Origin: a virus
Taxonomy: Duplodnaviria; Heunggongvirae; Uroviricota; Caudoviricetes
Length of the DNA stretch: 64,000 nt
Reading direction: 5' to 3' (one strand)
Virus record (IMG/VR): IMGVR_UViG_3300046786_000604
Coordinates: 12,364-76,363 of that record
A model generated the notes under the pieces. It was not told the origin of the DNA. It was given only the letters and a program-made list of their open reading frames with translations, and made no database searches. Positions 40,490 through 42,110 of this stretch are shown here, one piece after another (the first letter of the stretch is position 1; each line of letters begins with the position of its first letter). A program made the position numbers and the translations under genes.

Positions 40490-40839
40490 GCAGTAAAAGA
40501 CGGTATGTATCCATTGATATATCTAAACTGATATGCTTTAATAGCATTTAATACCAGTTTACCTACATATCGTTCTACTGTTGGTATATTGTTTCTGAAC
40601 ACCATAACCATATGAAACTCATGTTCTGAACTATTCTCAACCTTACTAATCCATTCTTGATATGTCTTAGCTTGGAGTTGTTGGTGTTTATCTTCTTCTT
40701 TTGTCAGTTGCTTGATTGCTAATTTCCGCAACTCATTCATATCCAATGCCTTATCGGTTGCTTTCATGTATCGAGCTTCATTGCCCATACGCATTAATCG
40801 TTCTTCGATTTTTGATTCTGTGATAGCCATGTGTTTCAA
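40486..40839 (-). CDS. hypothetical protein
   Basis: 117-aa ORF overlapping the serS stop by 4 nt. Confidence 0.45.
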
Positions 40840-42110
40840 TTGCTAATTATTTCTAAACCGCCCATGTAAGGACGTAAGGCTTCTGGCACCGTTATTGAGC
40901 CGTCTTGATTTTGATAATTTTCCAACACCGCAATCAAGGTACGACCAGCTGCTAAACCGGAACCGTTTAAGGTATGCACCAATTCTGGCTTACCGGTTTC
41001 TGGGTTACGCCAGCGAGCTTGTAAGCGACGGGCTTGGAAGTCTTTGAAATTACTGCATGAAGAAATCTCACGGTATTTTTGCTGACCTGGCAACCACACT
41101 TCTAAGTCGTAGGTTTTAGAGGATGAGAAACCAGTATCGCCAGCGCACAACAACACTTTGCGATAAGGTAGGTTCAACAATTTCAAAATGTTTTCAGCAT
41201 GAGCAGTTAATTCTTCATGGGCTTGCGCTGATTGTTCTGGCGTGACAATTTGCACTATTTCGACTTTTTCAAACTGATGCTGACGAATCATGCCACGCAC
41301 GTCACTACCATAAGCGCCCGCTTCGCTACGGAAACAAGGCGAATGGCAAACGTATTTCAACGGCATTTGCTTGGCATCAACAATCACATCGCGAACGATG
41401 TTGGTCACTGGCACTTCGGCAGTTGGGATCAGATAAAAAGTGGGGTCGTTTTGCACGGTGAACAAATCGGCTTCAAACTTCGGCAATTGGCCGGTGCCGC
41501 GCAAGCTGTCAGCGTTGGCCAAAAATGGCACATAAGTTTCTGAATAGCCGTGTTGATTGATATGGGTATCTAACATCAACTGAATAATCGCCCGTTGCAG
41601 CGTGGCTAATTTGCCAGATAACACCACAAAACGGGCGCTGGCGATTTTTGCGCCTAGCTCAAAATTCATTCCCAGCGGTTCGCCTAAATCAACGTGATCT
41701 TTTGGCGTAAAGTCGAAACTACGAATATCACCCCAACGGCTGACTTCAACATTGTCGTCTTCACTTTTTCCAGCAGGTACCGCTTCATCCAAAATGTTGG
41801 GAATGCCTTCCATCAACGCATTCAAACTGTCTTGGAGTTGATCCAGTTCGCTTTCAGCGGTTTTCAACTGGTCACCTAAATCGGCCACTTGATCCAATAA
41901 CGGTTGAATATCTTCGCCTTTGGCTTTGGCTTGACCAATCGCTTTTGAGCGAGTGTTACGCTCGTTTTGCAAATCTTGAGTTTTAACTTGAATCTCTTTA
42001 CGGCGATTTTCCAAAGCCAAATAAGCATCAGCATCAAAGTTGATACCGCGTCTTTTCAACTGTTGCTGTACAAATTCGAGTTCGCTTCTAAATAAACGAG
42101 GGTCTAACAT
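40836..42110 (-). CDS. serS: seryl-tRNA synthetase (class II, gammaproteobacterial type)
   Basis: Full-length 424 aa; N-terminal coiled-coil arm; class II motifs ([16 protein letters not shown]); collinear with E. coli SerS; local GC clearly higher than the flanks. Confidence 0.85.

Follow-up and report, generated by a model that had tools for sequence, protein, structure and literature searches.

Background

Aminoacyl-tRNA synthetase (aaRS) genes are amply documented in huge phages (>200 kb), which carry up to 15 of them per genome together with many tRNAs, and which hold versions "distinct from but related to" the host genes (PMC7162821). Large freshwater phages of methanotrophs provide another case of host-derived genes: their pmoC is >90% identical to that of the coexisting host and has been used to infer the host (PMC7674155). 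Here, we describe a gene for seryl-tRNA synthetase (SerRS), serS, in a stretch of 64,000 nucleotides (nt) from a tailed phage (positions 12,364 to 76,363 of the IMG/VR virus record IMGVR_UViG_3300046786_000604). The whole of this stretch is hereafter called the window. The explanation that we consider likely is that a large AT-rich tailed phage has very recently captured the serS gene of its Methylomonas-like methanotroph host and would thereby add active SerRS to that already present in the infected cell.

Identity of serS and Its Donor

The gene and the part of it that is shared with bacterial DNA are located as follows:

40836..42110, minus strand: serS, a complete open reading frame (ORF) of 424 amino acids (aa), ATG to TGA.
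40850..42110, minus strand: bacterial segment of 1261 nt, which starts with the ATG and ends 11 nt before the donor stop codon.

The earlier note on this DNA, made from the letters alone, had described the product as a full-length class II SerRS of the bacterial type, with an N-terminal tRNA-binding arm and motifs 1–3, and the family searches bear this out. The protein passes the NCBIfam serS equivalog model TIGR00414 at 530.9 bits (cutoff 301.65), with residues 1–416 corresponding to profile positions 1–418. Against the SerRS structures solved for P. aeruginosa, K. pneumoniae, and E. coli, it aligns end to end, with E values between 5e-168 and 2e-164. Each of the two Pfam domains is recognized: PF02403 (Seryl_tRNA_N, residues 1–106, E = 1.8e-29), which aligns with the tRNA-binding arm of the solved structures, and PF00587 (tRNA-synt_2b, the class II core, residues 220–399). 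Motif 2 (CFRSEAG..., FRSE...R) and motif 3 (GSGLAAGR) are kept in the alignment to 6hdz and 6h9x. No catalytic residue has been lost.

A protein search returns a tight cluster at 98–100% identity, followed by named Methylomonas SerS at 88–91%, the nearest being those of Methylomonas koyamae, M. montana, M. methanica, M. lenta, and others. Scanning GTDB with SerRS gives, among the matches listed, a best identity of 87%, to a metagenome-assembled genome. Two proteins, P0002 (423 aa, a 100% match) and P0010 (98%), are encoded on 12 bacterial contigs that share one conserved context, namely rsgA, an M48 peptidase gene, rnt, crcB, serS, a globin gene, a PIN/MazE pair in some of the contigs, and mfd. 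These contigs represent a donor population (L002-L008, group A) and a second population (L009-L013, group B). Most group A contigs have the PIN/MazE pair, a toxin–antitoxin system, between the globin gene and mfd; L003 bears an S9-family peptidase gene in its place, and group B is devoid of the pair.

At the DNA level, the phage serS is 97.86% identical to that of L002 over 1261 nt with 0 gaps, 97.1–97.6% identical to those of the six other group A contigs, and ~93% identical to those of group B. The homology to the host begins exactly at the ATG (42110) and stops at 40850, 11 nt short of the donor stop, and no similarity to the donor is found in either flank of serS. Within the donor-derived part of the protein, 419 of 420 residues match the host enzyme; the single change, N94D, introduces a residue that is found naturally at this position in the relative P0015. 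Compared with the chromosomal SerS (P0002), the phage protein has the same domain order and nearly the same length (424 versus 423 aa), and the genes agree in GC content, in GC content at third codon positions (GC3), and in codon usage. What sets the phage copy apart is its surroundings, which are those of a phage instead of crcB-serS-globin, and the lack of the host 5′ untranslated region and terminator.

The composition of serS is strikingly at odds with that of the phage DNA around it. The gene has a GC content of 45.3%, against 28–35% in the flanks, and reaches a peak of 49% in 300-nt windows. Thus, the earlier note was right to place serS clearly above its flanks, although its figure of 48–50% is too high for the gene as a whole. 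The other 1275-nt windows (n = 60,175) have a mean GC of 34.4% (standard deviation 1.7%, maximum 39.9%), so that serS stands at z = 6.4; the window has no second GC island. In the donor loci, GC ranges from 43 to 46%, and the donor serS has 45.3%, the same as the phage copy. The GC3 of the phage serS (0.44) is close to that of the L002 serS (0.43) and of host genes as a whole (0.47), and far from that of phage genes (0.23). The codon-usage log-likelihood per codon is −0.243 for serS, with a host mean of −0.214, whereas 33 of 33 phage genes score from +0.107 to +0.403. Since GC, GC3, and codon usage all match the donor, serS has undergone no amelioration, and its GC anomaly is simply the composition of the donor.

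The donor is an uncultured Methylomonas-like bacterium of the Methylococcales with a chromosome of ~45% GC, known from freshwater metagenomes. The capture from a host-like genome, recent and unameliorated, that the earlier note had suspected is strongly supported by the 97.9% DNA identity to a chromosomal serS and by the host GC, GC3, and codon usage, and it acquires a specific source. The transfer went from bacterium to phage, as follows from the match in composition together with the synteny conserved in two host populations; transfer in the opposite direction is rejected because the composition of the gene fits a bacterial chromosome and the chromosomal synteny is shared by both populations.

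An origin in an old, phage-adapted aaRS lineage of the huge-phage type could draw on the aaRS genes already known in huge phages (PMC7162821) and on the many IMG/VR and INPHARED "phage" records with serS. However, those records are ≤60% identical to the present gene, whose sequence and codon usage are those of the host. In IMG/VR, SerRS relatives do not exceed 60% over the full length (one partial match has 67%) and mostly lie at or near a contig end; huge-phage copies there are few and 43–49% identical. Likewise, tblastn of SerRS against deposited phage records gives ≤60% identity. Neither phage-like codons, nor a position in an old phage lineage, nor a loss of catalytic residues has been found, and the 97.9% DNA identity to the host, the host codon usage, and the nearly empty site in the related phage contig L157 (see below) reject such a lineage. 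The same holds for the pickup of a host gene at a prophage boundary by imprecise excision, since the host homology ends at the ATG on one side and 11 nt before the stop on the other, with no flanking host DNA: phage DNA runs for >20 kb on either side of serS. Taken together, these two origins are extremely improbable.

At least one of the records in question is not a phage. "Acinetobacter phage MD-2021a" (L001, CAKLQH020000002.1, 254 kb), the top tblastn match and the one INPHARED record inspected, has its serS beside rplU, rpmA, rpoD, ispB, lolA, and cysG and is a bacterial chromosome, and the unannotated 10–31 kb ON170xxx "Ralstonia phage YO" records with serS are probably bacterial as well. 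Mislabeling of this sort makes aaRS genes seem more frequent in phages than they are.

Age of the Capture

The phage allele of serS is inseparable from the alleles of the host population itself. It differs from group A at 27–37 nucleotides, while the group A sequences differ among themselves at 8–30 and from group B at 86–98. In a neighbor-joining tree, a group A that excludes the phage allele is recovered in 4% of bootstraps. The number of synonymous substitutions per synonymous site (dS) is 0.10–0.14 between the phage and host serS and 0.12 between two host alleles, those of L002 and L008; for the genes flanking serS, comparison of this phage with relatives that lack serS gives a dS of 0.07–0.13.

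At 12 sites the phage is unlike all of group A; three of these show the group B state, and nine are private with respect to 12 host sequences. Eight of the nine private changes are synonymous, the ninth being N94D (P = 3.6e-5 under neutrality). By direction, five are GC>AT, three AT>GC, and one C>G, which is uninformative on amelioration. The low ratio of nonsynonymous to synonymous substitution rates (dN/dS 0.01), along with the synonymous excess, means that purifying selection has acted somewhere on the private branch.

Insertion Site in Related Phages

The window is collinear, at 89–98% identity, with IMG/VR and metagenome contigs of 68–100 kb; these relatives, as well as the 77-kb source record, are all partial contigs. 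The phage genes next to serS are the following:

42934..43398, minus strand: phage ORF of 154 aa, the last backbone gene before the variable block.
42350..42953, minus strand: two small phage ORFs of 97 and 102 aa, both AT-rich and part of the variable block.
42136..42345, minus strand: upstream phage ORF of 69 aa, its last 10 codons inside the leader that precedes serS.
40486..40830, minus strand: downstream phage ORF of 114 aa, with its ATG start at 40830.

In the relatives, the same place looks different from one contig to another:

L067-L074: a 144-aa ORF runs directly into the 114-aa ORF.
L014: a deletion truncates the 114-aa ORF.
L015: the entire stretch is missing.
L075 and L076: a different 1.5-kb set of small ORFs lies at the same place.
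L157 (95.9% identical): the 102-, 97/99-, and 62/69-aa ORFs of the window are followed directly by the 114-aa ORF.

Thus, the junction is occupied by at least four different states among phages that are 93–98% identical. Comparison with L157 is the most instructive: 1341 nt of the window (42171-40831) replace 14 nt of L157, that is, a single gene has been inserted. Up to ...KEFKEW, the 154-aa ORF shares 97% identity with the 144-aa ORF of L067-L074; beyond this point the two diverge. The 97- and 102-aa ORFs are absent from the L067-type relatives; since both are present in L157, which has no serS, they predate the insertion of serS. The 69-aa ORF has a homolog in L157, P0128 (62 aa, 97% identical), which ends in LRDN* and so has a different C-terminus. 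For the three small upstream ORFs, searches of IMG/VR and of the family collections gave neither relatives nor family matches, P0128 of L157 being all that was found.

The 114-aa ORF on the other side of serS has homologs P0121-P0127 of 113–121 aa, four of the seven being exactly 114 aa long; the two that were looked up both begin with MAITESK, and the window and L067 copies align from MAITESK on. It has no match in Pfam or PHROG. These homologs dispose of the 4-nt overlap between serS and the downstream ORF reported in the earlier note, which arose from a mechanically assigned TTG start at 40839; the real start is the ATG at 40830, as the homolog lengths and MAITESK indicate, and the two genes are separated by a 5-nt spacer (AACAC). 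Of the claim that serS is embedded in a phage operon, the common strand and the close spacing stand, and the overlap does not.

A second strain-specific gene lies 0.5 kb downstream of serS. Located at 39878-40357 (minus strand), it encodes a P-loop kinase of 159 aa that matches Pfam AAA_33 and weakly resembles polynucleotide kinase (phrog_505, E = 7e-10); all close relatives have an unrelated 96-aa ORF instead.

Junctions of the Captured Segment

Between the bacterial segment and the phage genes on either side, several short elements have been recognized:

42111..42171, minus strand: AT-rich leader of 61 nt, found in this phage only and absent from both L157 and the donor.
42143..42151, minus strand: direct repeat TGAAACACA, 5′ copy, 9 nt, flanking the insert.
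40844..40849, minus strand: TAATTA, the remnant of a phage junction element, GG(G/A)ATAATTA followed directly by ATGG.
40831..40843, minus strand: filler GCAATTGAAACAC, 13 nt, which supplies the serS TGA (40838-40836) and the 5-nt spacer.
40830..40838, minus strand: direct repeat TGAAACACA, 3′ copy, from the serS stop through the A of the next ATG.

At 9 nt before the serS ATG, the leader carries an AGG resembling a Shine–Dalgarno (SD) sequence; it also gives the upstream 69-aa ORF its new C-terminus and stop. A search for the source of the leader gave no significant match, whether in the window, in the loci collected, or among viral and metagenome sequences. At the other end, the complete junction element GG(G/A)ATAATTA, ending where ATGG begins, stands directly upstream of the ATG of the 114-aa ORF in L157, L075, and L076, and the TAATTA left of it in the window marks the 3′ crossover point with the bacterial DNA. 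L157, L075, L076, and L067 have no counterpart of the filler GCAATTGAAACAC, which repeats TGAAACAC(A) of the leader, so that a 9-nt direct repeat brackets serS; apart from this repeat, a search for the origin of the filler gave no significant match. The 8-mer core of the repeat occurs six times in the window, counting both strands, and two of these occurrences bracket serS. As a result of the 3′ junction, the protein ends in ...LEIISN, whereas the host enzyme ends in ...LETIQ, the last three residues having been replaced. The residue before the final conserved I varies among the solved SerRS (V in 6hdz, Y in 6h9x).

There is no extended homology at the junctions, a gene-boundary motif has been reused, and a short filler has been copied from nearby; this pattern points to capture by illegitimate recombination, after which a product that could be expressed survived. 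Site-specific or transposon-mediated capture is rejected on the same junction pattern. The sequence of events may be pictured as follows. The host serS would have entered a hypervariable accessory region, between a small phage ORF and the conserved 114-aa ORF, and the recombination took no more than the reading frame, beginning at the ATG and breaking off 11 nt ahead of the stop. On the 5′ side, the phage would provide a 61-nt leader with a site that resembles a ribosome-binding site, and on the 3′ side, the phage junction element and the 13-nt filler would replace the last three residues and add a stop.

Since such an arrangement has been seen in a single contig, one may ask whether the contig is an assembly chimera, in which serS reads of an abundant host were stitched into phage DNA. 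Exact-pattern scans for the junctions and the leader gave no matches in the viral and metagenome collections, which do not contain the source contig, and the donor and the related phage contigs come from the same kind of collections (JGI, ENA). Nevertheless, a chimera would need two joins that lead back to the same phage, with position and strand unchanged. At the junctions, no k-mer is shared with either parent, at most 1–4 nt being common. A chimera would also have to meet the ends of the ORF with an offset of 0 nt (5′) and 11 nt (3′), in frame with a new stop, and to bring in 74 nt (61 + 13) that are foreign both to the donor and to the serS-less relative. The nine private substitutions, unseen in 12 host sequences, tell against it as well. 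We therefore regard a chimera as very improbable and the capture as most probably real.

Expression and Possible Function

serS lies on the same strand as all its neighbors, among tightly packed small genes with no convincing terminator. The promoter-like sites of the region that deserve mention are as follows:

43471..43500, minus strand: sigma-70-like candidate, TTGACA-18-TACAAT, matching 11/12 positions, upstream of the 154-aa ORF; a match to the consensus only.
42160-42133, minus strand: sigma-70-like site in the leader, 9/12, no better than chance.
40462-40489, minus strand: perfect sigma-70 consensus with an extended −10, TTGACA, 16 nt, TG-TATAAT, 12/12.

The first of these could, judging by its match to the consensus, drive the string of genes that contains serS. 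The perfect site at 40462-40489 follows the 114-aa ORF immediately and precedes the kinase gene.

The core of the phage SerRS is identical to the product of the donor serS, a gene that itself sits in conserved chromosomal synteny. With 419 of 420 residues being those of the host, and with all class II motifs and all the family features tested in place, the protein, if expressed, is expected to work as an ordinary SerRS and to charge the tRNA-Ser of the host. The effect would be more SerRS during infection, with serS co-transcribed with the neighboring small genes of the early type. Such added dosage of SerRS is the simplest consequence suggested by the sequence, and the most likely one.

Several observations weigh against this account. 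serS is absent from 13 of the 13 related phage contigs (13 datasets) that cover the neighborhood, which argues against a strong conserved benefit, and the arrangement that carries it is known from one contig. No tRNA genes were found, either in the 64-kb window or in eight related phage loci. Serine makes up 7.1% of phage proteins and 6.4% of host proteins, which offers no clear rationale in terms of demand. Promoter- and terminator-like sites in the region are no more numerous than in shuffled controls. Finally, the dN/dS of 0.01 is not attributable to selection inside the phage: the true donor allele may be unsampled, and the differences may predate the capture. The serine codons of the phage are shifted toward TCA, AGT, and TCT; such a shift would call for tRNAs rather than for a synthetase.

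Provided that the capture is real, it is quite possible, if somewhat short of an even chance, that serS is a neutral, short-lived passenger that will be lost. None of the 13 relatives has it, L157 with its identical neighbors included; the region is one of gene turnover, with its four or more states at the junction; no codon adaptation or amelioration is seen; and the enzyme duplicates the host's own. The structure of the insert fits a passenger less well, for the captured segment has been trimmed precisely to an intact ORF, and with its SD-like leader and repaired stop it looks as if it had come through selection to be expressed. That all but one of the nine changes on the phage branch are synonymous (P = 3.6e-5) speaks in the same sense, though these changes may predate the capture.

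The extra SerRS might also offset a limited charging of tRNA-Ser, either under the stringent response or when a toxin or inhibitor acts on SerRS or tRNA-Ser. Such a counter-defense or stress bypass is quite unlikely. The context lends it some color: the same phage encodes NAMPT, NMNAT/Nudix, and an ADP-ribosylglycohydrolase, and the strain-specific P-loop kinase with weak similarity to polynucleotide kinases lies 0.5 kb downstream. However, an enzyme identical to that of the host can evade an inhibitor or toxin directed at the host SerRS only through dosage, and the phage enzyme is nearly identical to it; moreover, no tRNA or RNA-ligase genes are found nearby. No defense directed at SerRS or tRNA-Ser is known to us, and none was encountered here, where no dedicated search for one was made.

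A bolder proposal, which we think unlikely, takes the capture to be adaptive: in a mid-sized phage without tRNA genes, a host-identical SerRS under early phage signals would sustain the charging of tRNA-Ser while the infected methanotroph closes down or breaks down its translation support (by a stringent response, by abortive infection, or by a shut-off of host transcription), and the junction formed by GG(G/A)ATAATTA and the ATG behind it would be a recurrent entry point for whole host ORFs. Recent capture of the host gene, with SerRS dosage as its probable effect, remains the explanation that we prefer.

Other Features of the Phage Window

The window is phage DNA throughout, with a GC content of 34.6% overall and 0.31–0.40 in every 1-kb window outside serS. 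Its products include virion structural and head-decoration proteins, a lysozyme with SLT and peptidoglycan-binding domains, HNH and non-specific endonucleases, DNA methylases, a BCS1-like AAA ATPase, NAMPT, a bifunctional NMNAT/Nudix protein, an ADP-ribosylglycohydrolase, and the products of many small unannotated ORFs. Megablast of positions 38000–45000 against deposited phage records gave no near match. There is no sign of lysogeny in the data examined, and no integrase among the window ORFs scanned. A gene of the rIIB family, present in the relatives, is the only hint of a place in the T4 group, and no T4 core genes were identified among the scanned ORFs of the window.

Between 17000 and 30000, a 13-kb block has its GC skew reversed and contains a single ORF of at least 150 aa, at 18439-18918; it is probably a cluster of many small genes on the plus strand. 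Inside the virion structural ORF 5096-6841 (minus strand), an 11-nt word recurs at 6347, 6419, and 6491 (6347-6501), and this 72-nt period suggests a 24-residue tandem repeat in the protein.

The ORF 7093-8289 (plus strand) passes the NCBIfam model for 5-aminolevulinate synthase, TIGR01821, at 556 bits (cutoff 338.55). It is AT-rich and has no PHROG match; the block around it is on the minus strand, and no other large gene there lies on the plus strand. An enzyme of the Shemin pathway, which makes a haem precursor, is unusual on a phage of a gammaproteobacterial methanotroph.

A set of genes for NAD+ salvage is found at 34884-36257, 59461-60477, and 43436-44425, all on the minus strand. NAMPT scores 669 bits on NF006629, and the bifunctional NMNAT/Nudix protein scores 386 bits, slightly below its cutoff of 397. 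The ADP-ribosylglycohydrolase of the set is Tri1-like; it is absent from L014, L015, and L067-L074 and split in L075. The set resembles the NAD+ reconstitution pathways by which phages counter NAD-depleting defenses.

Comparison with Known Systems

A host-derived accessory gene in a phage is a known kind of finding, and the present case involves no new mechanism or biochemistry. Its value lies in its resolution and in the link to a host. The donor allele, a nearly empty-site allele (L157), and the product are all available, so that the capture can be followed base by base, with its ORF-precise trimming, the reuse of a junction element, and a filler that repairs the stop. Moreover, serS ties an uncultivated lineage of freshwater phages, present in at least 13 datasets, to a Methylomonas-like population, which bears on the viral control of methane oxidation in lakes.

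Like the aaRS genes of huge phages (PMC7162821), the gene described here is a translation gene of bacterial origin on a tailed phage and is useful for host prediction. It differs from them in being inseparable from host alleles, in having no tRNA gene beside it in 64 kb, and in belonging to phages represented by contigs of 68–100 kb only. Thus, aaRS genes can also enter phages known so far from contigs of this size, and they start out identical to those of the host.

The closest ecological parallel is the pmoC of methanotroph phages (PMC7674155), since in both cases the hosts are freshwater methanotrophs and the host has been inferred from the captured gene. The differences are that serS belongs to translation and not to methane oxidation, that its identity to the host gene is much higher, and that it is found in one variant only; no pmoC turned up among the scanned window ORFs of at least 150 aa.

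The variable block resembles the hyperplastic regions of T4-type phages (PMC2839356, PMC4122927). No PeSL promoter/stem-loop cassette has been recognized at the serS junctions, where the GG(G/A)ATAATTA element before the ATG and the 9-nt repeat are the only such features. Nonetheless, in both systems short conserved junction sequences lie at gene boundaries, and a block of small ORFs varies by insertion, deletion, and replacement, here among phages that are ~96% identical. What distinguishes the present locus is the nature of the insert, a large housekeeping gene that has come straight from the host.

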